From Chiloscyllium plagiosum (lineage: Eukaryota): DNA of 64,000 nt. Below are positions 17,601 to 57,168 of the stretch, piece after piece (position 1 is the stretch's first letter; the number at the start of each line of letters is the position of its first letter). The DNA lies in assembly GCF_004010195.1 (NCBI RefSeq), contig NC_057719.1:39546252-39610251 (forward strand), written 5' to 3'. The notes under the pieces are model-generated. The model was not told where the DNA came from. It saw nothing but the letters and a program-made list of their open reading frames with translations, and did no database searches. The position numbers and the translations under genes were made by a program.

Positions 17601-20600
17601 GACTATGAGTAGCAACACAAGTGGTATTCACCCCCAACAGGATGCTGCCATAAAGACATTCTGCCTTCTACAAAGGAATAGTATGGTATATGAATTTTGA
17701 TGCTATTGTGGTGCAGGGTAGTTAGGTCATATGTCCCAAAAATTGGTGGTTGGTCATATCAAACACTATCCCTTCAGCTATTTGCAAGAAATAAAGTACC
17801 CAACCAGCCTGAGCTTATAAAACTCATAATGCAGTGTCCAACATTAGATGTAATTCTGCGATTCAACAACATTTGCTAAATAAGCCTCAGTGTGAGAAGA
17901 ATTAGATGGACAACTGATTTAGGGTTGTTAGTCAGGCATACAGTATTGCACACTTGTGTGCTCAGGAAACAACATTTGCAGGGCCCTGTTCTTTTCAGGC
18001 AGAAAGAAAATGTTCTTATCTTGCACTTGTTTCAATTCAATAAAGTAGATCCCAACCAATCTCTGGTTGATTTCTCATGTATGTCAATTGAAAGCTTTAT
18101 TTCATTAGAAAGAACTTATGAGACCAGGTGGTCTTTTGAGACTATTTTTAATGCCCAATATGTATGCAATAATATTAGAGCTTCAGTATTTATAAAAGAT
18201 ACTTTATTACTTTTCCAGTAATTGTTATATTCTTCTAATGCCTTGACCAATTAGCGTCAATCTTTCTGATTTAAAAATAAAACAAGGTTTGGCTGTTAAA
18301 TGTCAGTGGTCACTAACTAGTGCATTCTCCATGGCAACACCTCTACCAATTGGAGTCTACTTACCAGCCAAACAGTGCTACTTTATTCTATTCTATCAGT
18401 GTTGCTTTCCCTTTACTTTGGTGTTTCTTGTACCTTTTCCTGATGAGTGCAAGACAAAATGCTTTTTTTTTTAAACACTAAAGTCCTGTTCTACTGAACA
18501 ACTATTATTGTTACTTGGTATTTTTCTCACCCAAGTCAAATTTTCAACAATAGACAGTTTTCTTTATTAAGTTGTTTCGGTGAGTAGTTTTTCTGATGTT
18601 AGTTGATAATATTTTATTTCTCTAGAAAGAAATTTTGAGAACTGGTAGTCTACTCAGGAATATTTTTAATGTCCAATATGTTTTGCTACTACTTAATTAC
18701 ATACAAGTAACAGGTTTTTTTTAAAAACTGTATGCATTCTTGTAGCACTGCTCCAGGTCAGAGGACACCTGTGACCTCCACCCATAGTATCAGCAGCACA
18801 ACCACTCCTGACCGCCTGCGTTTCCCCAGAGGAACTGCCAGTCGCAGCACTTTCCATGGTGGCCAGCTTAGAGAACGACGAAATGCAACGTATAATGGAC
18901 CACCTGCATCTCCAACACTGTCTCACGATGCCACTCCCCTATCCCAAGCACGAAGCCGAGGTTCTACAAACCTCTTTAGTAAACTAACCTCAAAGCTCAC
19001 AAGAAGGTGAGTGTAATTGTAGGCTTTTGAATAAAGTTGCAAGGTGGTAACTTACATAAAACATATAGAGGTATATTTGACAATGATAGAGCTTGTAAAA
19101 ATATTTAACAGGCATCCATTCCAGTGATTGTATACTTGACAAATTTAGGTTGACGTTTTAATCATAACTTGAGCCTGAGCATACTACTGAATAGTAGTGA
19201 AAAATAATTATTACTGGTGTCACTCAAATATTGTCCCGTTAGGTTTATATTCTGGTTGGTTGAATTTGCTCATTTTCCAGAATTACCTATTGCACAATAT
19301 TGTTAGCATTAAACCTAAAACTTGCGATTTAATTTTTTTTAATGTCCTCAGTATTTCACACATTATCAGTGAATTGTGTTTCAAGTGTGGTCACCACTCT
19401 CATGTAGTTAATAGTGCAATCAGTTTGTGCAAAGAAATATTCTACATGCAACAATGAAAAAAAACATAGGAAGTAAGGCAGGAGTAAGATATTTAGTCCC
19501 TTGAACCTGGTCCATTAACATGATAGTTGATCTGATGTGACCTTAATTACTTTCCTCCCTGTCCCAATGTGACTGCAGATTCTGAGCAATCCTGTCTATC
19601 CATATGATCCAGCTCAGCCATATCAGCAGTAAGTTTTTGCAAATTAAATAGCTTTGGCTCAGTTATGAGCTAGACGCTGAGTTGCAGACACTGCTGCGTC
19701 AGAGACAAAGAAAGTTACATAGATACTTTGTTCCGGACTCCAACCACAAACCTTAAGATAGCATTTTCTTATTGGTCAAGAACAGGTGGGTGGACAGTTG
19801 TGAGTGAGGCAAGTATGAGGGTCGATAGGCAGCAGTGGATGAGCTTCAGCCTTTGCAATCTTTTTTGGTTGTAAGGACTTCAAGCCTAATATGTGGATGA
19901 AAGCAAGCTCTGCAACACAGATGATCAGACTGACTAAGACACCACAGTGCAGTATGCCATTCAAACAGGGCAAATTAATAGGGATGAAATGCTAGGAGGG
20001 AGCAGTGTAGTCAAGGGGATGAAACATTTCTGGAGTCATAAAGATTGAGGCTTCCTGCCTGAACTGCCCTCTCAGGCATAAGGACATATGCATCTATGAA
20101 CAAGAGTCCAAATGTCTGTGTTGCCAGCCTGATGCCAGGGCTTGGCACGTCTGCTGGCAGCTGAAGGGGCAGGATCCAGTTAGATACAAAAGACATAGAC
20201 CTAGGAGGAAGGTGTGCTGAATGAATATTAACAGCTAGTTGCTAAATTAAAAAACATTGTCTCAATGGTAATATCTCAGGATTACTACCACAGCCACTAA
20301 CAAATTGGTATAGGATAAATAACGTTAGAGGGTGAAATGGATGGCTGCAAGGTTGGTATGGGAGAAATTAGAGAATGAGGGCAAGCTAGTTAAAAAAATA
20401 TAAAAATAGACATTAAGAGTTTCTGCAAGTACTTAAAAGGGAAATATTAAATAAAGTGAACATAAAAAAAGTGGTTGCTGAGATTGTAGATACATTGGTT
20501 TTATTTTCCAGAATGCCTGGATTCTGGAAAGATCCCATTAAATTAGGAAGTAGTGAATGTGATTCAAGAAAGGAGGGGTATAGAAAGCTGGAAATTACAA

Positions 20601-26600: not shown

Positions 26601-29600
26601 ACGGTCCTGAAGACACACTATGAGCCTATCCTCTAGTCCAAACAATGTGAAGGCTTAAAGTCACCCACTTTAGGGCACTTTTCATCCAAGCCCCAGTTGT
26701 TTCTTGATGTTAATCTTGTCCTATTGTGTTGCTAATACTAGTGGGCATAAAACAACTCTCACCAATGACTTATTTCCTTTGTTGTTTTGTATCTCCACCC
26801 AAACTGATATTACGCCTTGACGTTCTGAACCAAGATTATTCTTAATAATGTCTCATCCTCTTTTAACAGAACTACCCCACCTCCTTTTCCATTCTTCCTT
26901 CCCTGCAGACAGTGGTGTAGTCATAGGTCAAGTAATCCAGAATGTCATAGGACTAGTAATGCAGAATTCCTGGTTAAAGTTTTGAATATCACAATGACAA
27001 GTGGTGAAATTTGAATTTAATAAAACAATCTGAAATAAAATGCTACTCATGTAGCACTGTCAGTTGCAATTTAAAAAACCCATCTAGTTCAACTTAGATT
27101 GTCTAGGGAAGAAAATACACCATCCATATCTGGCCTGCTCTACAATTTTATTCAATTGTGGGACATTGGTGTGAGAGCAGCCTCCTTGAACTACGTGACT
27201 CCAGCCCAGCACAATGTGGTTCACTCTTTACTGCCCTCTGAGTAATTAAGGATGATCAATAAATACTGGCCTAGCCAGAGATGCAAAATGATTTTTTTAA
27301 AATGTCAAATACGCTTTAATATTCAACTCCAGTCTTGTCAACCACGTCTTTGTAATGAGTTTTTAATATCATGCTCATTTATTTCTATTTGTGTTAAGAA
27401 TTCATTCATCCAATTATGAATGCTATGAGCAAGTAAGATACACAGCTTCAACTGCTTCTGCTTCCTCCTCTGCTGTGCACACTTATGTTTCTGTGCTCTC
27501 AACTTTCCTGTCAGACTCTACTTATCCTGCACTATTCCCTTGTATTTTCCCTTTAGCCTTTCAAATCTCCCCTTCACATGACACTTTGTCGCCATACTTT
27601 AATTGAACGCATTCTCACCTGAGATAATTATTCTATTTTTGATGTTGGTGATTGAAGAATAACTGTATGCTAAAATTTCAGAGAAGCTACCCTACATTAT
27701 AGGTTTTGGTTCAAAGTTTCCTCATAAGATGGGAATTTGTGACATTACAGCTTTCTTTCAGTACTGCACTGAAGTGTCAATTTAGGCATTGTGTATTCAA
27801 ATTCCTTGACCTGGACCTTTTAACCCCACAACCATCTGAGTCAGAAGCAGGAGTAGCACCACTGGATTAAGCTAATACTGTGTCAAGTTGCTGGTTAGGT
27901 GCAGTTAGTTTCATAATGATTTTTATTATTTCAGAACAAACTAGTTGTGTATGTCTGTAATTATTTTTGCACCTCAAGATGTGCATTATGGCCACTATTA
28001 TAATGTTTTGTTGCATTGCTGTAAACTTTAAAAACCATAATAACTTGATTGGGTGATTTGACAAATATTTTTCAAGCTCTATTGTACTATGGTTTATAGG
28101 TACTCTAGTCTTTGAATATGTTTGTATGTGCTCAGGCCTAAGTACAAAATAAGCTGCTTTTGAATTCCAATTTTTTTAACTCCTATTAATCATTTTTTGT
28201 ACCTTTGAATTAATCATGAGCAAATACAATCTCAGTTTCCATTATTATGCAATAAAGCTTTCTTGACAGGAAACCAGTGTAAGCAGGCATACGTTTAAGT
28301 TAGAAAAACAAGATAAATACCCCCTGAATCATAGTGAAGTATTCTTAACTGTCCAACGAAAATAAGATTCAGAAGTAGATATTCTGCCTGGTGATATAAC
28401 TCAACATAGAATAAATAAAACAAAATGATTTGGAGAAAATCAAAGCTATACTGGAGGTTACTTTGAATATTCTCTTTGTTGGGATGAGTTACTTTGTATT
28501 ACATTTTTAGCTATCTTCCAAGGTGACATTTATAAAATAGAAGTTGCAAGAAACTATTTATGACTGATGCATGTAATCTTGGAGGACTTCCAGCAGAAAA
28601 TTTGCACAATATGAAAATAGGTCTACTCTGTTGGGTTTTAATTAATGTGTCCATATGATTGTGGGTATATTTGAACTGTTGCATCTTTCACCTGTCACAG
28701 TTATCGAGTCATATTACATGCCACAAATTTGATCTGAGTTATTTATGGTCAAGAAATATATCTTAACAAATAGAATTGAACTGGTCCTGACTGGTCTGTT
28801 GGGTCAGTCAGAAATTTCTTTGTGACTGGACTCAGAATTTCAGCTGTAGCGAGGCCTCGTGCGCATTGTCATTTTGCTATGTCCTCTCCTCATACATCTT
28901 TCTTATCAGTACTGTGTGACAGCCATCAAACATGCAATTTTTTTGTATAACATATATGGGCTTTATTTACATTTTTTGCTTCTCATTTTTTTTTTAATTT
29001 AGAAACATGTCTTTCAGGTTTTCCAAAAGGTAGGATTTAAAATATAATTGGTTTGATCTGCAATATTACCAGAAACCTGGTTTCACAACCTTGATAACTC
29101 AATGACTTCCTGCTTATATAAAAAGGTTACCCATGGCTTACCTGGGAGATTGTATACTATTAAACCATTAATGATGATGGGAAGTGTTCTAATCTGGTTG
29201 TTTTAAACATATATACAGCTGTGCATGCTAACTACTTACTGTCATGTCAGATTCATTGCGATTAACCAAATTTTGATGGGATCATTTCATTATCTTACTA
29301 ATACACCAAGCATGATTGGGGTGTATGTTAAAGTTTCCTTAGTTGGAAAAAAAGCATGCTATAAAGCAACTATAAACTTTGAAAATAGCATTTGTTATGT
29401 AAAATGTGTTGGGCTGGGGAAGCAAATTCCCTGATTGCAGTTCTCTTGCTAGAAGTATGATTTAGGATTCAAATAGTGCGGAACAATTTGGATTTCTGTG
29501 GCAAGTGGCATAATGCTTTCTTCCAAATATCTTTTTCAGAATAGAGCTGATTTGCCATATCTTATGGAAAAGATTTTTATATTAGATGAAGGAACTTTTC

Positions 29601-38600: not shown

Positions 38601-41600
38601 CCTTTATAAACTCCTTATGTCCTCTACACAACTCGCTTTCCTACCTATCCTTGTGTCGTCAGCAAGTTTAGCTGCCGTTATTTGAATCCCTTATTATACT
38701 ATATTTTCACTTTACACATTTAGGCTAAACTAATCAGTTGAAAGTCTGTCTCTCCACTAAAAGCTCTCCCCCTTAACTTCCCAAGGGAAATAAGTTTAGC
38801 GATTCCAACCAGTTTGTTATACTCCATTACCCCACACTACTCATAATTTGACTCCTGACTCAGAATAGCTGGTATTTAAAGTAAAAAGAATGAAACTGAT
38901 ATAGTAGAAGGTTATATTTTGAAAATGGGGATATAGTCCATGGTTAGAGTATTTTGAAGAGAGGAGACAATGCTATATCTGGTCATGTTGCTCTGCGGAG
39001 TGCTGGAAAGTACACAGTACACAAATAGGAAATATCTGCCTTTTCTAGGATATTTATCTTCCACTTTGAGCACATGATTCTTTTCTCATTACTTCCCTCT
39101 CCACACTCCCAAAAAAATCAGATTTGATAAATTGTTACAATCTGTAGTTTGTTTAAAAAAAAAAATTCTCCTGTCCATCCCTTTCTGCTTTGAAAAAACA
39201 ATCCTGGTTTGTAAATTATATGTCATCCTATCAAATGTTAAATATTTTAATAGATTTTTTGCCATCATAGACTCAGTACCTTGAAATAGCTTATACAATA
39301 TGCTAAAAATTATATGCAACCAATTTTTAATGTTTCTAAAATATGTCTATTCTTTTTTTAATGACTTCGAACCAGCAATACATCTGCAAATTTGGGTAAT
39401 CTCTTTCAAAATATTGCAGTTGTGTCCATCATTTAGTTTTCAATGACAAATATTTCTTACCTGACAGTAAATTATTTCGTTCACTGATTAGAATTGAAAG
39501 CCTACATCATTATGCCAAGAACCGTCAGCCCTCCATACCCTCCAACAACAAAAAGTAGTTAGATGCTATTACTGTTTTAAAGAAGTACTAAAGTGGAAAG
39601 GATTGATGCTGATAAAACTCATTAATGTAATTCATATAAATACATGCATTCCAACATAGCCCACTGTTTTGAGGAGCAATCCAGACAATGTGTTCCAATT
39701 CATCAGGGCAGTTGAGAATGTGGATTCATATTTTTTTTAAAAATCATGGAAATGGCTCGTATTAATGAAAATGATCAAATTTTCACATTGTATCACAAAA
39801 TCCACTGTTTCATTAGTGTCCAATAAGAATGTGTACCATCCTTATCCATTCTGACCTATATTTAAATCCAATTCCTGCAAACATGGCTGCATTCTTAAGT
39901 ATTCTAGTGTAAAACTCAATTACGTCAAACCACTAAAGAGTTCAATTACTTTCTTCTCAAGGCAAGTAAAGATGGGCAGTAAATGCTGACCTAGTTGGCA
40001 GTGCCCACATATCAAGTATTTGTTTCTTTTAAAATCAACCAAACACAGTGTCTTCCACAAGGAAGGAAAAGGAATGTATTTATATAATACTTCACATGTC
40101 CTCAGGAGACTCCAAACTATTTCACAGTCTTATTATTTTAAATTTAGGCAATTTTCTCACAAACAACACTGAAATCATCGACTAGTTAATCTGTCTTTTG
40201 GTGGTATCCGTTGCCTTTCAACCATTTAAAATGAAAATGAGGCAGAGAGGTAGTAGAAGTTCTGAGTGAAATACAAATGAGTTGGAAAGTAATAACAGTA
40301 TGCAAAATTCTGAACTTTTCTATAAGAATGAAGATAAAATTGTATCATCATTTGCACTTGATGGCAGAATCATTAGAAATGTTACATGTCTGCATCAGGT
40401 TTCCAAAATGATATAATGACTTTGTGTTTTGCCACCTGCTCCCTGTAATCTTGTATGTTTGTATTTAAATAATCAACTATTGCCACCTTTAATGCCTCAA
40501 TTGAATCTGCCTCCACTACACTTCCAGGCATTACATTCCAGATTCAAGCCAGTGTGAAAAAGTTCCTTCTCATATTAGTGACTTCTTTTGCAAATCATCA
40601 TAGCACTGCTGTATTACTCTTGACTTGCTTATGAGCAGGAACAGTTTCTGCCTGTCTGCACTGTCCAGACCTGTCATGATTTTGAAAACTTCAACCTAAT
40701 CTCCTCTTAGCCGCCTCCTCTCTAAGGAAACAGTGTCAACTTTTCCAATCTATCTTCATGACAGAAGTTTCTCATCCTTGGAACCATTTTTGTAAACCCC
40801 TCACACACTTTCCAAACTTCACATCCTTTCTAAATTTGGCACCCAGAACTGGGTATTTAATTTGTGGTATAACTACCTTTATATAGGTTCAGCATCCCAT
40901 TTATGCTATGCCGCTGTAAATATATCCTTGAATATTTTGTGCTTTATTAACCACCGCCTCCATCTGTTTTTCCATCTTTAATGATTTATGCACATATTGG
41001 CTCACCATGTTCTTTATACCATGTATATCATATATAGATAAATATGTGTACAATGCATTTCATGCAACTGCAGAATTTATCCTAAGATTCACTGTCTCAA
41101 TTATTTAGTTATGAGTAGTTTGATGCTACTGAGGTAGAGTGCAGTTATGTAGTTGTGTTCATCTTTGGTCAGTGATGAGAAAGTTGAGTTAATTGTTATT
41201 CTAATTTTGTTCTAAGTTGCTACAGTTGTAGGTAACAAAGTGGGAGCATCAGCACTTAATGTGCTAACATATGTCAGACTATATGTAGATTGATCTATAT
41301 GTGCAGTTTAATTCTCCAACATTTTTCCTCTTCTCAGGGTCACTATTGACCCATCAAAACGGCAGACTTCGAACAAATCAGTGCCCGCAAATACTCCTCC
41401 ACAAGGATCAAAGACTGTTAGTAAGTCTTCAGCCTCTAAATCTTTCCTCCTCTTGACATTTATTTCTGAAATACTTTCTTTGCGCACTTATAAAACTCTT
41501 TACGTTTAGAATTCCTTTTTTCTTCCAGATCTCAGATCCAAAGGACTTTTCCACTGTCTATTAAAATACTTACAGTAGTAAGTCAAAGATCAGTACTTTA

Positions 41601-44600
41601 GACACTGTAATTTATATTGAAATGTTTTAGACAGTACTAAGAAATTTCTGCTTTAGAATATTGTAACAGTTAGACTTAACACATAATCACAACATTTGCA
41701 TTTGAAAGCCTTGATGTGTTTTAAAGAGCTGGAATTCTTCCTTGCTGACATATCACTTTAGGATGAATTGAATGTTTCTCTGTTGAGAAACCATTTAACT
41801 TGCAATATATTGCTTGTTGGCACATTTTAAAAACTATTAGTCCTGAATGTGGACTAAAGGAAAATGTCTGTGTTCGGCTGTTAAGTGAAATGTAAGTTCA
41901 ATGCAATTGAGTAATAACTTCATGGTAGATAGGATAGTGAAAAAGGTATTTGGTGTGCTTGCCTCTATTGGTCAGTGCATTAAGCATAGGAGTTGGGTGG
42001 TCATGTTGCAGCTGTAGAGGATATTGGTTAGGCCACTTTTGGAATACTGCATGCAATTCTGGTCTCCCTGCTTTGGGTAGGATGTTGTGAAACTTGAAAA
42101 GGCTCAGAAAAGGTTTACAAGGATATTGTCAGGGTTGGGGGTTTTGAGCTACCAGGAGAGGCTGAATTGTCTGGGATTATTTTCCCTGGAGGCTGAGGGG
42201 TGACCTTATAGAGGTTTATTAAATCATGAAGGGCTCTGGTAGGGCAAACAAATAAGATCTTTTCCCTGGGGTGGGGGAATCCAAAACTAGAGGGCATATA
42301 GTTAAGGTGAGAGGGGAAAAATATAAAAGGGACCTAAGGGGCATTTTTTTTCACGCAGAGGGTGGTACGTGTATGGAATGAGCTGCCAGAATTGGTGGAG
42401 ATGTGCAATTACAATATTTAAAAGATATCAGGATGGGTATATGAATAGGAAGTGTTTAGAGGGATATAGGCCAAATGCTGGCAAATGGGACTAGATTTAT
42501 TTAGGATATCTGGTCCGAAGGGTTTGTTTCCATGCTGTACATCTCCTATGACTCTATAATTATTCAGGAAATCTTTCTGAAATCTGTGTTTATTTAAGGA
42601 GTATACTTTTAGTTTCTTTATAAAAATGCACTTCTACCATGCACGCACTGAAAGAGAATCTGACCCATGTAATCTGTTTTGGAAGGAAAAAAATACTGTA
42701 ACCTATCAACTGACTTGAAAATTGTTAGCACAAAATTAAGCAACAACTTTGCGTGTAAAACAGGTAGCTGTGTGCATCTAGAAACTGTACAGGAACTTCA
42801 GTCTTTATGACTCATCTCAGTTTTTGTTTTCTGTTAAGATTTAGATTTCCTATTTTCCCAGTGTAAAACTGGTGACTACTCCATTGTGTTTTTCAGTGAC
42901 TTGCATATGTGAAATAATAAATGACTGTGAGGTACACAGAAATCTTATCATTGAATGGACTATTTCAGATCTGCTGAGTATGTGGGATGTCCTGAAAATT
43001 TTTTTTGTTTCTCAAATTAATTTTGGCATTCAAATCTAATATTAAGCTGCAGTGCAGATTTATTGAGTCTATAGGAATATCAGCAATCCTTACATTTTTA
43101 TCTATGAGCCTGTGCATTGACTACAGTGTATCCTTTCTTAAAAATAATAACATGCACTTCCCTCAAAACATCATTGACAAATAGTATTCATTTAAGCCTG
43201 TTGAAAATGTATTTAGGTTAAAACTGCAAGTCAAATTACACTTCAGAAATTCCACACTATAACATTAATCCACATTGCTTTAAAATCAAATGATCCTTTT
43301 CTTTTTCCAACCTAGAATGTGACAAATTAAAATTTGGATTACAGGGGCTGCTTGTTAGCAAGTTTCATCTCGACCTCCGTAGCAAAGTTTTGTCTGTTGC
43401 TTTACTGATAGAAAAGGTGCTGCTGATGATGTTACAAAGAGTAAGGCTTGTAATGTCTTTTCATAAAAAGCTGGGGGAGTTCCTCATTCTTTGTGTAAAT
43501 TTACTCACTAAATCTCAGTGGCAAAGGCTTTGAAATAATTTTATCTTACTATGTTGATTTCACAGATAAAATAAGCATTTTGTCATTTTAAATGGAATCT
43601 CAGTGTATGCAGGAATCTAATTAGCCTAGTCATTGATTTGATTGTATAGTACTCTGAGAGAAAGTGAGGGCTGCAGATGCTGGAGATCAGAGCTGAAAAT
43701 GTGTTGCTGGAAAAGCGCAGCAGGTCAGGCTCTCCTTGGATGCTGCCTGACCTGCTGCGCTTTTCCAGCAACACATTTTCAGCTATAGTACTCTGAGACC
43801 ACAAGATATCTGAGAGATTTTATAGTATTATTTAATTCTAATTAAATTTGAGCTAGTTTTCCAAGAAGTGTTCTGTTTACATTACTATCTTATTAAGTTC
43901 TGAGATGACTGTATTCAATCAATTAAAAGTAGCCGTGCATAATTCGATAAAATTATTAGACTTCTAAACTTTGAGTTTTATTGTGTTTGGCTTTGGCAGC
44001 TGGTTGTATTTAATGTTAAGAATGATAGTGATATTAGATATAGGAAACAGGGCTTTCATTTCAACATTGTGCTTGGATGGAGAGGATTTGGGATAATATG
44101 TTGTTGCACAGATTATGTCATTGAATCTGATGACTTCTAAGTTAATTACCATACAGATCAGGCAACAGGTTTTTTTACAGCAACTTTTTCATTGCTATGG
44201 CAAATCAAGTTTTAACATGTTAGTTGTACATTAGCAAATGTAATGAATCTGCCGTGATTGTCTTAATTCCTGACGTGTTGTTATGGTTTACAGAAAGGAT
44301 TATCTGAGTAACATTGGGCAAATTATATTTCTTTCTCAATTCCTGTGTTAAAACCACTGAAATCCAAATATCCAAGATTTAATAGTTTATTTTGGAACCA
44401 ACATGTTTTGATTCATTTTTATCCCATGCTTATTTTTCAAGAGGAGAGTTTGGAAATGAAGCACCATATGAGTGATGCATTACCTTGAAATCTATGGATT
44501 TTTAGAGAAAATTAGTTCCAGAACGATTAGTGTTTTGCATGTGTTTTAAGCTTTAATTAGAACAACTGAGTTTGTTTTGTGTCTTTGATCTTTTATCTTC

Positions 44601-47600
44601 TCTTGCACTTTACCGGTGCTCACCTTAAGTAAGCTTCTCACTATTGTGTAGTTTTGAATTGTACAGGTTATTTGTTTGCATGATGTGTGTATGATTGGAA
44701 GCTATACAAATATATTATTCTTGGTGTACCAACTTCTAAATTATGTGCTAAGTCAAAGCAATGCTTCTATATACATAAGTGGACAAGAAGTCAGTTAAAA
44801 TAGGTTAATTTTTCAACAGGTGGAAGAAGTAAAACATTTGTTTGGCCAAACCAGAATTCTTGTAATCTCTTTGACCCAACTGTTTTCCATTATAAAAAGC
44901 AAGTGATCCTTGACTGTGTTCCCTGCCCAGCATTGACTCTCAACTTCCCAGTGACAAAAGTTCAGATCTCAAATATGATTTTGTATATGCAGCATTGCTT
45001 CTGGTCATCTCTGTAACTTTGTTTCTGCACTCTAGCTGCAAAATTCATCATTCCCTGACCCATCATCGACAACTTTTTGTCCCACTTTCTGGGATTCCCT
45101 CCAGTTCTGCATTAAGACCACAGCCCTCACACTTCCCGCCTCTCTCCTGTTTGGTGCCCCCTTTGCTCACTGATCATCTTGCTCACCATCTCCCTGCTCA
45201 TTGCTTTTTTCCCTAACATTTCTATTTGCAGCTCCTCTCACTGTCTCACTCAAGATCTCAGACGTAAAACAGGTGCAGGCGTGGGAGATGGTGGGCGAAA
45301 GAGAACCAGGGATGGGGTTGATTGGGGAGGTGGGGGTCAGCAAGCAGGAGGATCAGGAAGACATGGCCAGCAGGATTTAATTTTTATACAAAGAGTTAGC
45401 ATGTTGTGTCTATTTTTTAAAATTTATATTATTTTCAATATTATTTCATTTGCAAGAATGGAAATGTATGAATACATATTCGTTCAACTGAAAAGCGATA
45501 TTATATCTTAATGCTTTTTCTTCTGACAGGAAAGATCTTCTAAAACTTAACTACAGATTTTTACTTTGGTTCTGCTCGGAAAATCTGATTTGCTTTATGC
45601 GTTTCATTTAGCATTGCACTTTGCAGAAATGCAGCAAGGACTTTAAGCAAGGAATTACTGTCCAAATATTTTAGGCTTACACTCCCATCAATTTTGTTTA
45701 CCTTATTCCATCTTCCCTACAAAACACAAACATGATGACTTCTTCTTCAAACCACACCAGTTGAGGTTTGTAGAAAACAGTTCAGAAGGTTTCTCTTGTT
45801 GTAAGTGGCCTCTGCTCATGATAAAAGTGCAATTAGATAAAATCTTCTGCCATTGTAAGGAAATGCATGTTTCTGTCTGCATCAACATAAGTGATGAATT
45901 GGTTAGTCCTTGTGTGCAGTAGGTTATATAACACAAGCTTAAGAATTTTCTTCTTTCTTTAATTCCTTGTGCTTTCGGATTGCTTTCATTGAGGGTCCCA
46001 ACTGAACCTGAGAGAAACGGGAGATTTGAGGGCTCAAGGTGAGAATGCTTGTATGTTTAGTAGGTTTATGTCAATGCGACCAAATATTGCGCTATCAAAA
46101 ATGTTTTGTAGTCTCATTCCTGGAAAACATAATTTCAGGGAGTGTCGATACTTTTGATAAAGTTGTTGAAATATTGTTTGATATTTGATATATAGTAATA
46201 TGCGATATTGTAAGAATAATAACAGAGATTTTGAAATTGCAATATAGTTCTCTCAGTAGGTTTTAAATATTTTATTGTTAACATTGGTTAATTTATTTAA
46301 TACTTTTGGCCCAAAATTTGGGTCCCTTTTAGCACTTGAGCCCAAGATTCAAATTCGCTTTAGGTTGATTGTTTCGGGTGAAAGTTGTTTTTCATCCATT
46401 TGCTATCAGGAACGTATACCAAATTAGCCAATTTCAAAAGGGAGAGGCACGCTGAGCCAATCTATTCAAAGAGAAATGGTAATGTTTCAATCATGCTAAT
46501 GAGGATGAAGTATAAAAACTTGTATTTAAGCTATGGAAGGGTAGCAGAACTGTACAGCTGACTAATGCTATATTAGGCAATCTATGCGCCAACAATATAG
46601 GTGTCCAAATACTGTTTTCCATTTTGAAAACCTTTATCCTGATGCTGATTAGTTTACAATGATCTTATGTATAAGCTTTTTATTGATCAAGAAAGAACAA
46701 GCACTCCCACAACATACATTGTAAAATTCTTTTACAGAAAGTAGGTTAAATTTTCTGTGAAAAATAATCAAAAGGTGAGATAACTGCATGATGGATGCAG
46801 TCAACGCAATAATCAGAAAGACGTAAATTTAATTTTTGAAAATACTGTTATGGTACATGGCATAGGATTTGCCTGCTGAGAACATCAAGCTATCTGTTAT
46901 AATATTAGAATAGGTCCTTCCATCATACGATGTAACTGTTTATTAAATAGAATCGCAACAGTGCAGAAAGAGGCCATTCAGCCCATTGGGACCACGCCAA
47001 CACTCTGAAGAGCATCCCACCCAGACCCCCACCATATCCTGTAACCCCACATCTGCCTATGGCTAATCAACCGAGCCTATACATCCCTGAATACTAGAGA
47101 CAATTTCACCATGGCCAATTCACCTAACTTCCACTGTGGGAGAAAACCAGACCCCCCGGAGGAAACCCATACCAAAAAGGGGAGAATGTGCAAGCTCCAC
47201 ATAGACTGGAATCGAGGCTGGAATTTAACCTTGGTCCCTGGCGTTGTGAGACAGGAGTGCTTATCCCTAGATAGTTGAGGATGAAATTGGAGATTGATCA
47301 TTAGCTGCTTGACAGTTTGACCTGAACACAGTCATATATCCAGAATTTTACACATACCTAATTAGATTGCATAAAAGAAGCAAGCAATTGTAATGCATCC
47401 CCCAATTAGCTGTATACTGCCCACTGTGGACTCGATACTGAATCATGCTGCTCACTACTGCTTGGGAGCAGTTTATGGTACTTGTTGGTTGCCTACCAAG
47501 GGCTCAAACCACGATTTTCAGTTATCTGATCACCAACCAGCAATCCTCCTTGGAGGATAGTGAGAAATTTGGAGCAAGGACTTGTCTGCCAATGGGAGAT

Positions 47601-49671
47601 TGGAGCCAAGTGAATCTTCTCTGTACATACCTAATGCTCAATACCTGAGTCAAGCTGGTCAAGCCTTGCTCCATTGCAGTATTAGCAAGTGACTAGCAAA
47701 CTTAGATTTTCAACAACATGTTGAAAAGTGGATTTGCCACCAGCATGTAGGGCACTTCACCTCAGTTCCACTTAATTCTACAAACTGAAACCCTAAGTAA
47801 GGCTTGAGTAAACTGGATGAACAGTGGAAGGCAAGAAGGGTGTTCTGCAAGAAGGGTGCACAATTTTCGCTTGTTAAATTCTTGCACACTTGACTAACAC
47901 TATCTTTATCTGAGCTGAAAATGTGTTGCTGGAAAAGAGCAGCAAGTCAGGCAGCATCCAGGGAGCAGGAGAATCGACGTTTCGGGCATGAGCCCTTCTT
48001 CAGGAATCAGCCCTGAAGAAGGGCTCATGCCCGAAACGTCGATTCTCCTGCTCCTTGGATGCTGCCTGACCTGCTGCGCTTTTCCAACAACACATTTTCA
48101 GCTCTGATCTCCAGCATCTGCAGTCCTCACTTTCTCCTCCTAACACTATCTTTATACCATTCTTTTGATGTTTGGTAAGAAAGGGTGAATCCCTGAAATG
48201 AAAATTGACATCTCTATAACTTTCTCAACAATTTGGTTTGGAGAGGTTCTAAGATTATTATGGGTTTCTGTACATTTTAGATGGTAATGATAAAAAAATT
48301 ATTTTGGAACTTGTATCTTATTATTAAAAGCCCTTATTTTACTGCTATTTGAAACTTGCTAATATAATTTTTGCTCCATCTAACTTTCTAGTTTTTTTTT
48401 AATATGTTTTAACTGTGACTCGGAACACAATTCCACCTTATGGGCACAGCTGATTAGTCATTTTTTGCTTTTAAAATCTTTACACAAAAGACTAAAATGT
48501 TACTTGTTTAGAAAGATTATTGATTGACAGTTGGATATTACAAATCAATTGATGCAGAACTGCATTCCATTTTTTTATACATGAATCTGAGATTTTGCAT
48601 TAAATTTTACATTAGCAAATTAAACATTGGTGATATACTGCATATATAAAACCAAGATGGGCATCTGCAGATTGAAGTGTGCAGTTTGTTACACGTTTCT
48701 ACATTGCAATCCTGCAGAGATAGCTCCACGTCAAAGTGTTTCTTTTGAATTCATTTCCTCATGTTTTAATGTTAGGATATGCAAGCAGCATTCACTTTTG
48801 TCCCAGAAAAATCACACCATGCTAAGTTTGATAACATTCCCATGGCTGCAGCAGTTTTTATAAAATTGGCATTGCGCCATATTGGCGTTTGACATTCTTG
48901 CACAGAGCTCAAGTAGTGTCAGATGATCGTTGAGTTGGACTCCCGTTACTTAGCTTTTGCATGCTCAGATCACTGACTTTAGGTTATGTCACCACTTTCA
49001 ATATTTATCCAAAATCTTTTTGCAGTAAAAATGCAGCAATCCAAAAGTAACATTGCAGATTATGCTAAATTAATAAAGCATAATTCAAATTTCAGTTACA
49101 TGTTAAATAAAGTATCTGTTCATGTTTTAAGAGATCAGGTAAATTATTTTTCAGAAATATCACACTGCAGAGATTGAGAAACTAACTAACAACACAGGTT
49201 CGACTTCATGCATGCTTTTTGACAGACTGCATGTATTTATAAAATAGAGAACAAAAATAGAAGCAGCAGTGTGTAGTTCCATGTTCTGTTATTTGGCTGC
49301 TGAATTTTCTTTTTGTTTCCTGCAGTCGCAATGTATCTGGGGATCAAAAAGACGAAATCAAAGAAGCAAAGCCCCGTTCACTCCGATTTACCTGGAGTAT
49401 GAAAACGACCAGCTCCATGGATCCCAATGACATGATGAGAGAGATCCGAAAGGTTCTTGATGCAAACAATTGTGATTATGAACAGCGTGAGCGTTTCTTG
49501 CTCTTTTGTGTCCATGGCGATGGTCATGCAGAAAACCTTGTACAATGGGAGATGGAGGTCTGCAAACTGCCAAGACTGTCACTTAATGGAGTTCGTTTTA
49601 AGCGAATATCAGGAACATCCATAGCTTTTAAAAATATTGCTTCCAAAATTGCCAATGAATTAAGGCTGTAA
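2596..49671 (+). CDS. MARK3: MAP/microtubule affinity-regulating kinase 3, 3' portion (spliced; upstream exons lie outside the window)
   Basis: AG/GT-bounded exons join in consistent phase and give the kinase tail, UBA, spacer and KA1 domain. Peptides such as [16 protein letters not shown] and [15 protein letters not shown] match recalled MARK3 better than MARK1/2/4. Confidence 0.95.
2900..3445 (+). mobile_element. Old Penelope-like element 3' end
   Basis: Decayed endonuclease C-terminus-like coding ([13 protein letters not shown]...EHFIF) followed by the CACAGATGCT...TTTCAGATT terminal motif. Confidence 0.5.
4475..4720. mobile_element. Palindromic Penelope-terminus-like insertion within CR1
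   Basis: AATTGCTGGACAAGCTCAGCAGGTCTGGCAGCAT is inverted against ATGCTGCCAGACCTGCTGAGCTTTTCCAGCAATT, with an extra tail on the right. Confidence 0.7.
4938..5353. mobile_element. Non-autonomous Tc1/mariner (Tc2/pogo-like) DNA transposon
   Basis: Terminal inverted repeats ta|CCGTATATACTCTAGTAATAGTCG and CGGCTATCACTCGAGTATACACGC|tg; TA on the left flank. Confidence 0.7.
6061..6173 (+). CDS. MARK3: MARK3 exon, 113 nt (UBA domain)
   Basis: ttacag|AT...GAG|gtaag; (D)[37 protein letters not shown]; phase 1 to 0. Confidence 0.95.
6250..6525 (-). mobile_element. Deu-domain SINE relic (SacSINE1/AmnSINE1-like); similar relic near 27620-27880
   Basis: Reverse complement reads GAGTCAGAAGGTTGGGGTTCAAGCCCCA...TGCAGTATTGAGG...TTTCAGATGA. 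Confidence 0.55.
6933..7254 (-). mobile_element. tRNA-derived V-SINE (HE1-like)
   Basis: Reverse complement starts GGGCGGCACGGTGGCTCAGTGGTTAGCAC, has the V core GGGTTTCCTCCG...TCCCACAGTCCAAAGA and ends in (TCTAA)n. Confidence 0.88.
8718..9010 (+). mobile_element. HE1-like SINE, diverged
   Basis: GCACAGCGGCTCAGT head and ACACTGTAGGGATTCTATG tail. Confidence 0.75.
9625..12319. mobile_element. Inverted pair of Penelope-like 3' ends, left arm interrupted by CR1
   Basis: About 9668-11400 is the reverse complement of about 11450-12310. Both arms encode an endonuclease C-terminus ([25 protein letters not shown] and [23 protein letters not shown]). Candidate TSD CCTCATTA at 9617 and 12320. Confidence 0.8.
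10099..11109 (-). mobile_element. 5'-truncated CR1 LINE
   Basis: [16 protein letters not shown] and [11 protein letters not shown] motifs; AACAAAA duplicated at 10092-10098 and 11110-11116. Confidence 0.92.
12595..12751 (+). CDS. MARK3: MARK3 exon, 157 nt (spacer)
   Basis: ctctcag|TTGGAA...CATG|gtaag; [52 protein letters not shown]; phase 0 to 1. Confidence 0.95.
13068..13282 (+). CDS. MARK3: MARK3 exon, 215 nt (spacer)
   Basis: ttgaag|CTGGA...ACTAGT|gtaagt; (A)[26 protein letters not shown]...[16 protein letters not shown]; phase 1 to 0. Confidence 0.93.
14017..14120 (+). CDS. MARK3: MARK3 exon, 104 nt (MTRRNTY motif)
   Basis: tatcag|AATAAC...AACAG|gtaatt; [34 protein letters not shown]; phase 0 to 2. 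Confidence 0.95.
14536..14730 (+). CDS. MARK3: MARK3 probable cassette exon, 195 nt (RHQKSMS motif)
   Basis: cacag|CCTGACA...CCTAA|gtaagc; phase 2-2; (S)[13 protein letters not shown]...[33 protein letters not shown], resembling the SLTEM...RHQKSMS exon of MARK family members. Confidence 0.88.
15560..18460 (+). mobile_element. Degraded Penelope-like element (RT and GIY-YIG) with an inverted terminal copy
   Basis: About 16880-17800 reads [31 protein letters not shown] and MVYEF*CYC. The stretch from 15560 is an inverted copy of the terminal region ending at about 18460. CTGATGAGTGCAAG occurs at both ends. Confidence 0.7.
15856..16400 (-). mobile_element. CR1 3' end nested in the Penelope-like inverted arm
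   Basis: GTCATAGAGTCATA tail and the GAAACAGACCCTTCGGTCCAAC 3' UTR motif seen in other CR1 copies here. Confidence 0.8.
18746..19006 (+). CDS. MARK3: MARK3 exon, 261 nt (RSTFH motif)
   Basis: ttgtag|CACTG...AGAAG|gtgagt; [17 protein letters not shown]...[20 protein letters not shown]...[12 protein letters not shown]; phase 2-2. RSTFH is the known aPKC phosphorylation motif of PAR-1 kinases. Confidence 0.96.
20380..21200 (+). mobile_element. Highly degraded CR1 fragment
   Basis: Remnants of PQGSVL (CTGCCACAGGGATCTGTGCTA) and KFADD (AAATTCGTGATGAT). Confidence 0.5.
21230..22040 (+). mobile_element. Penelope-like 3' end: GIY-YIG endonuclease fragment and terminal repeat
   Basis: CKTCQH...[25 protein letters not shown], then a pyrimidine-rich UTR and a hammerhead-like core. 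Confidence 0.85.
21975..22001 (+). ncRNA. Minimal hammerhead ribozyme-like core
   Basis: CTGAAGA-A-GGGT-TAC-ACCC-GAAAC-GTT. Confidence 0.6.
22394..23030 (+). mobile_element. HE1-like SINE split by an antisense CR1 3' end (22678-22975)
   Basis: SINE head/core and tail flank a [11 protein letters not shown] fragment; AGTC duplicated at 22674 and 22976. Confidence 0.8.
23040..24560 (-). mobile_element. CR1 fragments (old RT piece and a younger 3' end at about 24165-24560)
   Basis: [37 protein letters not shown] tail. Confidence 0.7.
25120..25345 (+). mobile_element. tRNA-derived SINE, a further family
   Basis: A-box-like TAGCGCAGTTGG and B-box GGTTCAATTCC followed by non-tRNA body. Confidence 0.55.
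29003..29029 (+). CDS. MARK3: MARK3 27-nt microexon
   Basis: ttttaatttag|AAACATGTCTTTCAGGTTTTCCAAAAG|gtagga; (R)NMSFRFSK(R) versus recalled human RNMSFRFIKR; phase 2-2. Confidence 0.9.
32565..34071 (-). mobile_element. Young CR1 LINE, 5'-truncated, spanning a gap
   Basis: [14 protein letters not shown]...[13 protein letters not shown]...[13 protein letters not shown]. Confidence 0.92.
32927..33392. other. Assembly gap
   Basis: Run of N. Confidence 1.
34200..34690 (+). mobile_element. PIF/Harbinger transposase relic
   Basis: Frameshifted motifs in the expected order: [16 protein letters not shown](E)...[15 protein letters not shown]. Confidence 0.55.
35630..37805 (+). mobile_element. CR1/L2-group LINE of a second family with an embedded SINE (about 36990-37340)
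   Basis: [44 protein letters not shown]; tail GGGCAATAAAC...CACATCCCATGAGTGAATAAAA. Confidence 0.8.
37810..38670 (-). mobile_element. CR1 fragment
   Basis: Minus-strand [10 protein letters not shown]...DLGVLV. Confidence 0.75.
41338..41420 (+). CDS. MARK3: MARK3 frameshifting cassette exon, 83 nt, MARK4S-exon-like
   Basis: tttttcctcttctcag|GGTCACT...ACTGTTA|gtaagt; (R)[27 protein letters not shown]; phase 2 to 1; similar to recalled MARK4S RVTLDPSKRQNSNRCVSGASLPQGSKI. Confidence 0.85.
41925..42555 (+). mobile_element. CR1 3' end
   Basis: [15 protein letters not shown] and [26 protein letters not shown] tail. Confidence 0.85.
43660..43783. mobile_element. Short palindromic Penelope-terminus insertion, centre deleted
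   Basis: Inverted arms; TATAGTACTCTGAGA duplicated at 43645-43659 and 43784-43798. Confidence 0.85.
45994..46038 (+). CDS. MARK3: MARK3 45-nt exon, open in two frames
   Basis: ttcattgag|GGTCCC...TCAAG|gtgaga; main frame (R)[14 protein letters not shown]; alternative frame (R)[14 protein letters not shown]. Confidence 0.9.
46948..47265 (-). mobile_element. HE1-like SINE, diverged
   Basis: GGAGGAAACCC...GGGAGAATGTGCAAGCTCCACA core. Confidence 0.7.
47910..48139. mobile_element. Palindromic Penelope-terminus insertion with hammerhead cores on both strands
   Basis: About 95-bp near-perfect inverted arms around an AATCAGC spacer; CTAACACTATCTTTAT duplicated at 47894-47909 and 48140-48155. Confidence 0.88.
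48013..48040 (+). ncRNA. Minimal hammerhead ribozyme-like core (mirror copy on the minus strand at about 47976-48003)
   Basis: CTGAAGA-A-GGGC-TCAT-GCCC-GAAAC-GTC. Confidence 0.65.
49326..49671 (+). CDS. MARK3: MARK3 last coding exon (KA1 domain)
   Basis: tcctgcag|TCGCAAT; (S)[33 protein letters not shown]...[20 protein letters not shown] with TAA ending at 49671. Confidence 0.97.
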
Positions 49672-51133
49672 AATATGGCTAAGCTATAGTTTCAGGCGAC
49701 ATTTCATGAGTGTTTTTTTCTGAACACTGGTGGAAATTTATTGAAGAAAATGTATAGGATAATGCTTACGCAATAACTACTGCAATTTCAGATCATGGTA
49801 TTGGAAAACAGTGGAAATTCACAAGCTGCTGAGGGGATGGGGAAGTTGATCAAAGAATAGATTTTCTTTTTATAAAAGTGCACTACAGCAGTCAGTATCC
49901 TAATAACTGAACAGCTTGCCCCTTCATCTCAGTTACTTCACGTTTGTAATTGGCTTAGAGTCAGTTGCTTGTAAAACAAACTGGAAATGATTCATCCTGT
50001 GTAGGTATGATCCGTGTATGTATTAAAAAAATGTTCCAACAAAATCCTTCTCTTTAAAATGTTGTTGAATTGAGAGACCTGTTTTCAAACCTGTATATCT
50101 TCCACTGTTAGTACTGATTCAGGTGCTTAGCTTTTCAAAGACAACGAATTGTAAGAAACAAATAAACTCATTTTCCATCAGTTGTGTTTAATGGCCTTCT
50201 GACAATGGAGGTGTGTACCTATGAGCTAGTTGTTTCTGTAAAATATATTATAAAGCAAGAAATTCTGCTAATGGAAGAAACCTATCAGCTGTATTTAGGC
50301 CTGTGATGATATAAATTACCTGTGTTAAGCCAGGGGTGCTGTGATTTGGAAATGATTTAAGTACTGTAGATCACAGATGCTAAACCACACTTAGGATCTC
50401 TTTATTGTAGAAAATATCACCATCTAAGACTGTTCCTTAATCAATTAGGACATAAAATTATATGTTTATTGTTTGAGTTTCTTTACAGTAAAGCTTAGAT
50501 TGGAAACAGTTTTGTTCGGCCGTACTTTATTTAGCTGTAATTATTGTTAATAAGAATACAGTCTGTCCTCCACACATACTAGCTAAGTAAAAATGTCTTG
50601 AGTCTGTAATTTAACATTTGGCAGTATGGGACAATATTCATTTAAGTATGCGGTTTTTGTTTTTTTTCCAAACTATCAGCACTGTCCTTTGGAATGTAAA
50701 TAATGTAACTTAGTTTGCGGACAGTATCATACTGTTATACAGTTTTTTTTTCATTTTTTTAATGTTCTGTAATGAGCCAGGAGTTACAAATCAATGTAAG
50801 TTGTCAACATTTCAGGTTCACAACTCTTCATTAAAGGAAAAGAAACTAAAATGTATTTCTGAAATGTCACATATCAGTTTACTCACTGACAAATATGCAC
50901 ATAAATATATACACATATATACAATGTCTATCAGCCTATTAGCTATAAATATTTTATTCCTTGTATTTTTCCATTTTACACCAATGATTCCGTCCAAGTA
51001 TGTTGCTGTTTAGTCCACTAGCAACTAAGAATAGTATACACATGGATTGACATAAATCAAAACTAGTGAAATGGAAGGTCAAACCTTTTTGCTAAGTTTT
51101 TCCACTCATGTAATTCAAATACCAGAAAATAAA
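49672..51133 (+). other. MARK3: MARK3 3' UTR (end uncertain)
   Basis: AT-rich sequence with no recognisable repeats after the stop; candidate AATAAA at 50161-50166 and 51128-51133. Confidence 0.6.
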
Positions 51134-54079: not shown

Positions 54080-56165
54080 TCTGTCACTCCCTTAAATTCT
54101 ATTATATTTAAAATAGTGATGGAAAAGGATAGACCAGATCTAAAAGTTAAAGTTCTAAATTGGAGAAAGATCAATTTTGATGGTATTAGGCAAGAGCTTT
54201 CAAAAACTGCTTGGTGCCAGATGTTCGCAGGTAAAGGGACGCCTGGAAAATGGGAAGCCTTCAGAAATGAGGTATCGAGAATCCAGAGAAAGTATATTCC
54301 TGTTAGGGTGGAAGGAAAGGCTGGTAAATATAGGGAATGCTGGATGACTGAAGAAATTGAAGGTTTGGTTAAGAAAAAGAAGGAAGCATATGTAAGGTAT
54401 AGACAGGATAGATCGAGTGAATCCTTAGAAGAGTATAAAGACAGTAGGAGTATACTTAAGAGGGAAATCAGGAGGGCAAAAAGGGGACATGAGATAGCTT
54501 TGGAAAATAGAATTAAGGAGAATCCAAAGGGTTTTTACAAATACGTTAAGGACAAAAGGGTAACTAGGGAGAAAGTAAGGCCCCTCAAAGATCAGCAAGG
54601 CAGCCTTTGTGTGGAGCTGCAGAAAATGGGGAGATACCAAACGAGTATTTTGCATCAATATTTACTGTGGAAAAGGATATAAAAGATATAGACTGTAGGG
54701 AAATAGATGGTGACACCTTGAAAAATGTCCATATTACAGAGGAGGAAGTACTGGATGTCATGAAATGCCTAAAGGTGGATAAATCCTCAGGACCTGATCA
54801 AGTGTACCCTAGAACTCTGTGGGAAGCTAGAGAAGTGATTGCTGGGCCACTTGCTGAGATATTTGTATCATCGATAGTCACAGGTGAGGTGATGGAAGAC
54901 TGGAGGTTGGCTAATGTAGTGCCACTGTTTAAGAAAGGTGGTAAGGACAAGCCAGCGAACTATAGACCGGTGAGCCTGATGTCAGTGGTGGGCACGTTGT
55001 TGGAGGGAATCCTGAGGGACAGGATGTACATGTATTTGGAAAGGCAAGGACTGATTAGGGATAGTCGACATGGCTTTGTGCATGGGAAATCATGTCTCAC
55101 AAACTTGGTTGAGTTTTTTGAAGAAGTAACAGAGAGGTTTGATGAGGGCAGAGCAGTNNNNNNNNNNNNNNNNNNNNNNNNNNNNNNNNNNNNNNNNNNN
55201 NNNNNNNNNNNNNNNNNNNNNNNNNNNNNNNNNNNNNNNNNNNNNNTACAGTTAGTAAGTTTGCAGATGACACCAAATTGGAGGTGTAGTGGACAGTGAA
55301 GAGGGTTACCTCAGATTACAACAGGATCTGGACCAGATGGGCCAATGGGCTGAGAAGTGGCAGATGGAGTTTAATTCAGATAAATGCGAGGTGCTGCATT
55401 TTAGGAAAGCAAATCTTAGCAGGATGTATATACTTAATGGTAAGGTCCTATGGTGTGTTGCTGTATAAAAAGACCTTGGAGTGCAGGTTCATAGCTCCTT
55501 GAAAGTGGAGTCGCAAGTAGATAGGATAGTGAAGAAGGCATTTGGTATGCTTTCCTTTATTGGTCAGAGTATTGAGTACAGGAGTTGGGAGGTAATGTTG
55601 CAGCTGTACAGGACATTGGTTAGGCCACTGTTGGAATATTGCATGCAATTCTGGTCTCCTTCCTATCGGAAAGATGTTGTGAAACTTGAAAGGGTTCAGA
55701 AAAGATTTACAAGGATGTTGCCAGGGTTGGAGGATTTGAGCTATAGGGAGAGGCTGGACCTTTTTCCCTGGAGCGTCAGAGGCTGAGGGGTTATAAACCT
55801 TATAGAGGTTTACAAAATTATGAGGGGCATGGATAGGATAAATAGGCAAAGACTTTTCCCTGGGGTCGAGGAGTCCAGAACTAGAGGGCATAGATTTTGG
55901 GTGAGTGGGGAAAGATATAACCAATACCTAAGGGTATCTTTTTCACACAAAGGGTGATACATGTATGGAATGAACTGCCAGAGGAAGTGGTGGAGGCTGG
56001 TACATTGCAACATTTAAGAGGCATTTGGATGGTTATATGCATAGGAAGGGTTTGGAGGGATATGGGCCGTGTGCTGGCACGTGGGACTAGATTGCGTTGG
56101 TATATCTGGTTGGCATGGACGGATTGGACCGAAGGGTCTGTTTCCATGCTGGATATCTCTATGAC
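54080..56165 (+). mobile_element. CR1 LINE ORF2 (frameshifted, with gap) and 3' end
   Basis: ORFs 54068-54682, 54607-55299 and 55481-55786 carry KSSGPDQVYPR, NYRPVSL, GKSCLTNLVEFFEEV and LVRPLLEYC. Confidence 0.93.
55158..55246. other. Assembly gap
   Basis: Run of N. Confidence 1.
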
Positions 56166-56492: not shown

Positions 56493-57168
56493 GGAGAAAG
56501 TGAGGTCTGCAGATGCTGGAGATCAGAGCTGGAAATGTGTTGCTGGAAAAGCGCAGCAGGTCAGGCAGCATCCAGGGAANNNNNNNNNNNNNNNNNNNNN
56601 NNNNNNNNNNNNNNNNNNNNNNNNNNNNNNNNNNNNNNNNNNNNNNNNNNNNNNNNNNNNNNNNNNNNNNNNNNNNNNNNNNNNNNNNNNNNNNNNNNNN
56701 NNNNNNNNNNNNNNNNNNNNNNNNNNNNNNNNNNNNNNNNNNNNNNNNNNNNNNNNNNNNNNNNNNNNNNNNNNNNNNNNNNNNNNNNNNNNNNNNNNNN
56801 NNNNNNNNNNNNNNNNNNNNNNNNNNNNNNNNNNNNNNNNNNNNNNNNNNNNNNNNNNNNNNNNNNNNNNNNNNNNNNNNNNNNNNNNNNNNNNNNNNNN
56901 NNNNNNNNNNNNNNNNNNNNNNNNNNNNNNNNNNNNNNNNNNNNNNNNNNNNNNNNNNNNNNNNNNNNNNNNNNNNNNNNNNNNNNNNNNNNNNNNNNNN
57001 NNNNNNNNNNNNNNNNNNNNNNNNNNNNNNNNNNNNNNNNNNNNNNNNNNNNNNNNNNNNNNNNNNNNNNNNNNNNNNNNNNNNNNNNNNNNNNNNNNNN
57101 NACGTCGATTCTCCTGTTCCCTGGATGCTGCCTGACCTGCTGCGCTTTTCCAGCAACACATTTCCAGC
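56493..57168. mobile_element. Palindromic Penelope-terminus insertion spanning an assembly gap
   Basis: Same arms as 47910; TCAAGTCAGATGA duplicated at 56480-56492 and 57169-57181. Confidence 0.8.
56580..57101. other. Assembly gap
   Basis: Run of N. Confidence 1.

Follow-up and report, generated by a model that had tools for sequence, protein, structure and literature searches.

A probable MARK4S-type splice switch in the bamboo-shark MARK3 gene, with evidence for selection on both frames of a dual-coded 3' end

The window analysed here, a stretch of 64,000 nt from the bamboo shark Chiloscyllium plagiosum, contains the 3' half of the MARK3 gene, as established by tblastn with MARK3 proteins and by mapping of exons across it (Table 1). 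The peptide of the last exon (49327-49668) is 100% identical to MARK3a from many sharks and rays, and the upstream exon matches MARK3 models of C. plagiosum; both exons are closer to named MARK3 than to other MARKs, which identifies the gene as the MARK3 orthologue. Three other MARK last exons are present in the genome, with identities of 90, 83 and 59%, and we read these as MARK1, MARK2 and MARK4. The MARK1 and MARK2 labels are our assumption, while the label MARK4 is based on the middle exons of that gene, most of which matched a named shark MARK4 at 85-93%.

Table 1. Exons and coding segments of MARK3 in the window
Feature	Position	Strand	Basis
Upstream MARK3 exon, ending in a KLTSKLTRR motif	18746..19006	+	tblastn with MARK3 proteins
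27-nt microexon, frame-preserving	29003..29029	+	tails identical to P0028, P0350 and P0129
83-nt cassette exon, frame-shifting, counterpart of MARK4 exon 16	41338..41420	+	tblastn; homologous peptide
45-nt dual-coded exon: linker in main frame, tail residues 1-15 in second frame	45994..46038	+	
Dual-coded start of last exon: 25 short-tail residues, TGA 49400-49402	49326..49402	+	
Last exon in main frame, with KA1 and stop TAA 49669-49671	49326..49671	+	

The donor of the upstream exon is the source for every downstream splice choice. The 27-nt microexon is optional in long and short isoform models alike. The 83-nt exon to which a preliminary description of this DNA had alluded was located before the penultimate exon; it is flanked by an AG acceptor and a GTAAGT donor, its length is not divisible by three, and a second GT lies four bases downstream of its donor (41421-41426), use of which would give an in-frame exon of 87 nt. 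Models of MARK3 and MARK4 from sharks, bony fish, coelacanth, lungfish and lizard contain a homologous cassette peptide. The 45-nt exon has a GT donor and an unusual GAG acceptor (TGAG, 45990-45994), which the shark genes MARK3, MARK4 and MARK1 share with bird-like MARK3 (L008, L019, L013/L014). TGCATG, which we take to be an RBFOX-type motif, occurs downstream of the microexon (29222) and upstream of the 45-nt exon (45864), and a search of the window found none near the cassette. In the last exon, KA1 (Pfam PF02149) spans about 49537-49668.

Inclusion of the cassette shifts the reading frame of the 45-nt exon and of the first 77 nt of the last exon, which adds up to 122 nt of dual-coded sequence (about 120 nt had been claimed previously) and a tail of 40 residues lacking KA1. 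Translation of the upstream exon spliced to the cassette, the 45-nt exon and the last exon gave a tail identical to that of P0122 (RefSeq XP_043553435.1, C. plagiosum MARK3a isoform X14) and of P0349. A Pfam scan found kinase and UBA domains and no KA1 in P0122, and KA1 in the long model P0028. The last 129 residues are exchanged on cassette inclusion for 67 (27 from the cassette and 40 from the second frame; 12 basic, 4 acidic), so that KA1 is predicted to be replaced by the 40-residue tail, and the stop of the short isoform falls within the last exon. Transcript support for cassette inclusion is indirect and comes through RefSeq models, which for the short isoforms are XP_ predictions; among the sequence records listed none is marked as RNA. 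Exon-exon joints over 40900-50100 were absent among the joints listed, which covered 4 of the 24 listed runs and in which repeat-derived contigs filled the tables. One raw run gave a mean depth of 0.28 in the bin of the cassette and 0.1 in that of the 45-nt exon, about one read's worth, which we did not count.

Exploring the second frame, we found that both frames are free of stops in the 45-nt exon and in 49326-49402 and that the second-frame TGA overlaps the main-frame ATG (49399-49401), just as the preliminary description had claimed. Neither observation carries weight as a clue. When the main-frame peptide was fixed and synonymous codons were drawn at random, the second frame remained free of stops in 43% of 50,000 draws, while 100% of them had the stop at the Met site, because ATG followed by A always makes TGA in that phase; openness and overlap are therefore no more than chance provides, and what exceeds chance is sequence conservation. 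The second-frame stop of shark MARK4 occupies the equivalent position and there overlaps an Ile codon; of the Ile codons, ATA alone would give such a stop, which is a single, weak point in favour. The 43% chance of an open frame and the forced stop are what one would expect if the conservation of the second frame were a by-product of main-frame and exon-edge splicing conservation and the truncated product were non-functional.

To characterize constraint on the dual-coded region, we compared shark MARK3 with the shark MARK4 loci L004 and L008. Main-frame third positions differed at 6/37 codons of the dual part vs 56/90 of the single-coded remainder (Fisher p=1.9e-6), and synonymous wobble differences were found in 1/18 codons vs 27/47. 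The third-position result was stable over the eight best placements of a 12-base gap, the two next-best placement classes giving 6/37 and 7/37. Changes were concentrated at third positions of the second frame (12/36), which is not predicted by plain splicing-enhancer constraint. The second frame was identical at 28/35 residues (pN/pS 0.11/0.48) and the main frame at 21/36 (pN/pS 0.20/0.22), bearing out the earlier claim that the second frame matches MARK4S at least as well as the main frame matches MARK4L. In simulations in which the main-frame peptide was kept and MARK4 wobble bases were redrawn at the background rate, an identity of 28/35 was reached in 0/20,000 (mean 14.0). The preliminary description had proposed that selection acts on the second frame and had named synonymous-site constraint and frame-specific substitution as ways of checking it; both point in the direction it expected, and we hold it very likely that dual-coding is under selection. 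That the second frame is the better conserved of the two between MARK3 and MARK4, and changes in a coding pattern, argues against a by-product of splicing, as does the conservation of the cassette peptide itself in both paralogues.

Comparison with the last exon of a teleost MARK3 (L021) gave a weaker result than the comparison with MARK4: third positions differed at 9/26 codons over the whole dual part vs 51/90 (p=0.07), and the share of simulation runs keeping the main-frame peptide that reached the second-frame identity of this exon was 0.0026. With a split of the last exon into 9 and 17 codons that was chosen after the data were seen, the proximal 9 codons differed at 0/9 vs 51/90 (p=0.001), while the distal 17 differed at 9/17 vs 51/90 (p=0.8) and revealed no excess constraint. 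Given this contrast between proximal and distal codons, strong constraint applies to a core of ~19 residues and not to all 122 nt. The proposal of selection on the second frame thus stands for the tail core, the last 17 codons showing no excess among MARK3 orthologues. Within the core, tail positions 11-22 were invariant in 32/32 distinct fish MARK3 tails, to which 134 MARK3 short forms reduce. In this phase every tail codon has a main-frame wobble site as its middle base, and a fixed tail therefore means that these sites are frozen in the main frame; six core positions depend on main-frame third positions with three synonymous alternatives and are nevertheless invariant. This invariance is partly circular, since the tail pattern itself fixed positions 7-8 and 12-15 and the collection search favoured shared words. 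The invariant core is likely a short putative binding motif. It is not strongly amphipathic (moment 0.03-0.30 across core windows). The constrained core also adjoins the exon junction, as the by-product explanation would have it, and copies of the gene in which the second frame is broken bear on this point.

Out of 80 metagenome loci, the five that look vertebrate (L019-L023) were used and the 75 that look invertebrate were left out. L019 and L023 are 99% identical to songbird MARK3, and in their second frame TAG takes the place of the codon for the core tyrosine. For L019, with about 1,150 bases of sequence upstream of the 45-nt exon, third-position change was not depleted (14/41 vs 26/90, p=0.55). 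The transcript contig of L023 departs from the main frame close to where KA1 ends, probably through an assembly error, and its first 68 downstream codons were used. The 45-nt exon of the bird-like locus is still identical at 11/14 residues in the second frame, showing that such identity can persist without an intact frame, in keeping with a by-product. However, codons at the exon edge changed at 3/9 in the bird-like loci and at 0/9 in the teleost; the edge is thus not frozen in the bird-like loci, and we consider it highly improbable that main-frame and splicing conservation alone account for the second frame. Among the proteins collected, the main-frame linker types of tetrapods (two amphibian, one songbird) were unable in 3/3 cases to encode one invariant core residue, and those of sharks and coelacanth were able to encode all of them. 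In a compact MARK3-like gene of fish (L020) the second frame is degenerate with an early stop, and its intron of ~230 nt gave no match to the cassette; in shark MARK1, the 45-nt exon has a stop at second-frame codon 3. Gene copies without a known cassette accordingly carry stops in the dual region. Stops in species that retain the cassette would have spoken against selection, and no annotated cassette-bearing fish MARK3 tail ends early in the dual region. Together, the data indicate that the second-frame tail was likely lost from MARK3 of birds and amphibians.

To determine how widely the short tail is distributed, we searched with the last 40 residues of P0122, which returned 149 proteins among 151 candidates. 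All of the 120 matches listed were from chimaera, sharks, skate, coelacanth, sturgeon, gar, bowfin and teleosts, nearly all named MARK3 and a few 'hypothetical', and none of these 120 of 149 was from a tetrapod. A search with the cassette peptide (120 of 171 matches listed) added MARK4 short forms of sharks, ray, teleosts, lungfish and lizard, the lizard MARK4 model P0235 having the same tail motif. In the MARK3 short models of Gambusia and Xiphophorus (P0241-P0247) the peptide of the 45-nt exon occurs twice in tandem, reflecting either a duplicated exon or an annotation artefact.

The second GT downstream of the cassette raises the alternative that splicing from the +4 donor predominates and yields an in-frame insert of 87 nt that keeps KA1, in which case the short tail would be a minor product in sharks. 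This donor is indeed used by five listed shark RefSeq/UniRef models (P0020, P0021, P0026, P0036 and P0050). Against its predominance, the first donor GTAAGT is consensus-like, short-tail models are annotated for these shark genera as well as throughout bony fish, and the second frame is under a constraint that an in-frame insert would not need; we therefore regard this alternative as improbable. In several fish MARK4 models (P0133, P0134, P0178, P0200-P0204) the cassette is spliced to an acceptor within the 45-nt exon, so that the main frame is restored; shark MARK3 lacks the AG used by them. Of the paralogues, shark MARK4 (G000:C41:6381250-6425351) is split between strands, the middle exons lying on + and the last two on -; the locus is interrupted by gaps, and the strand switch is likely an assembly inversion. 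A search of about 89 kb of C41, in which these gaps and the apparent inversion lie, did not recover the upstream exon or the cassette of MARK4. In shark MARK1 and MARK2, the interval bounded by the corresponding exons gave no match to the cassette, the MARK2 stretch containing about 2,200 N.

Overall, a MARK4S-type splice switch in shark MARK3 with selection on both frames explains the data best, and we hold this with considerable confidence. When the cassette is skipped, the usual kinase with KA1 would be made, and when it is included, the frame shift would let the 122 downstream bases encode the basic 40-residue tail in place of KA1. A stop codon in the last exon spares a transcript from nonsense-mediated decay, so by this general rule decay of the short form is not expected and its transcript would escape. 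Frame-shifting cassettes are nonetheless often decay switches, and the frameshift could be a regulatory off switch, acting through decay or an inactive product, in which the sequence of the tail is irrelevant. An AlphaFold model built from an alignment of 32 sequences had no confident fold in the tail, as an off switch would allow; however, with a mean pLDDT of 35.8 the kinase domain failed as well, so that nothing in the model was usable, and a helix at 656-663 (pLDDT ~50) was set aside. The location of the stop in the last exon and the conservation of the tail core at the amino-acid level both oppose an off switch, and so does the human MARK4 counterpart, described at the peptide level as a brain-specific isoform (Tress et al., bioRxiv 10.64898/2026.05.28.727796), and we find an off switch hardly credible.

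For a functional short form, a reading that we favour only slightly, the known roles of KA1 are instructive. KA1 is reported to bind membranes and CLASP1 and to inhibit the kinase (PMC6890249, PMC6451319), and auto-inhibition of MARK1 by KA1 is cited in PMC6890249 / PMC6451319. By analogy with these papers on MARK1, MARK2 and PAR-1, the short form would likely escape auto-inhibition by KA1 and lose the membrane and CLASP binding that depends on this domain, and thus be relocated and partly de-repressed. The effect on activity may be modest, since MARK2 is described as not requiring KA1 for its activity in cells, and a protein with a short deletion at the C-terminus as still located at the membrane (PMC6890249 or PMC6451319). 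Enrichment of the short form in nervous tissue is likely by analogy with human MARK4, for which brain-specific use is reported by Tress et al. and by Goubert et al. (PMC13160074; frame use).

The feature is the known MARK4S switch in the sister gene MARK3, and much of it is already on record: the MARK4S switch in the literature, dual coding in the family in a 2026 preprint and the isoform itself in RefSeq, where XP_043553435.1, whose tail is identical to the window exons joined via the cassette, is an automatic prediction without functional or evolutionary comment. Human MARK4S is reported to differ from MARK4L by exon 16 and a shifted stop, giving 688 vs 752 aa (PMC9355243), and the shark models have 684 vs 746-755 aa. 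Like shark MARK3, human MARK4 makes a short isoform with another C-terminus by including, ahead of its last two exons, an optional exon that shifts the frame, and the tails are homologous, as the identity to the shark MARK4 second frame given above attests. Unlike MARK4, the gene here is MARK3 and its main frame is highly conserved; its shark tail is four residues longer than that of shark MARK4, and the tail appears broken in bird and amphibian MARK3, in contrast to MARK4S. Tress et al. report dual-coding regions of the MARK1/MARK3/MARK4 family as preserved across chordates, with dN/dS below 1 in both frames of MARK4, and list human MARK3 and MARK1 as keeping a dual-coding region. This listing may conflict with loss from tetrapod MARK3, the tetrapods tested here being birds and amphibians. 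The main text of Tress et al. does not specify the dual-coding region of MARK1/MARK3; the tail frame being broken in bird-like MARK3 and in shark MARK1, the authors may refer to a different region, or mammals may depart from this pattern.

Both preprints are human-centred, and their main text describes neither a fish MARK3 isoform nor a loss in birds; our literature searches found nothing relevant on a fish MARK3 short isoform, nor a frame test for fish MARK3 or a report of bird or amphibian loss. What is added here is such a frame test, together with the apparent loss of the tail from bird and amphibian MARK3; these make a clean vertebrate case of two-frame selection with natural loss controls and single out a 12-residue core as the segment of interest. 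The switch is likely older than the MARK3/MARK4 duplication, which would date the MARK4S tail to before that event. More tentatively, the tail may carry an unrecognised binding motif that became fixed before the MARK3/MARK4 split, fish making both KA1-less forms and tetrapods having given up that of MARK3 and kept MARK4S, and the 'alternative' frame of MARK4 may be the dominant one, its main frame having drifted while the second stayed frozen. If the motif is older than the split, fish mark3a would be a direct genetic model for the role of the human MARK4S tail.

The window holds further sequence features. High-copy repeats in the introns, at about 42190-42545, 43660-43780 and 47935-48140, matched contigs and reads by the thousand. 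Three open stretches, of 157-197 codons, at 10670-11140 (-), 33394-33897 (-) and 54568-55158 (+) resemble LINE retroelements and are putative fragments of these. Runs of N marking assembly gaps lie at 32927-33392, 55158-55246 and 56580-57101, the first of them within the intron that separates the 27-nt and 83-nt exons.
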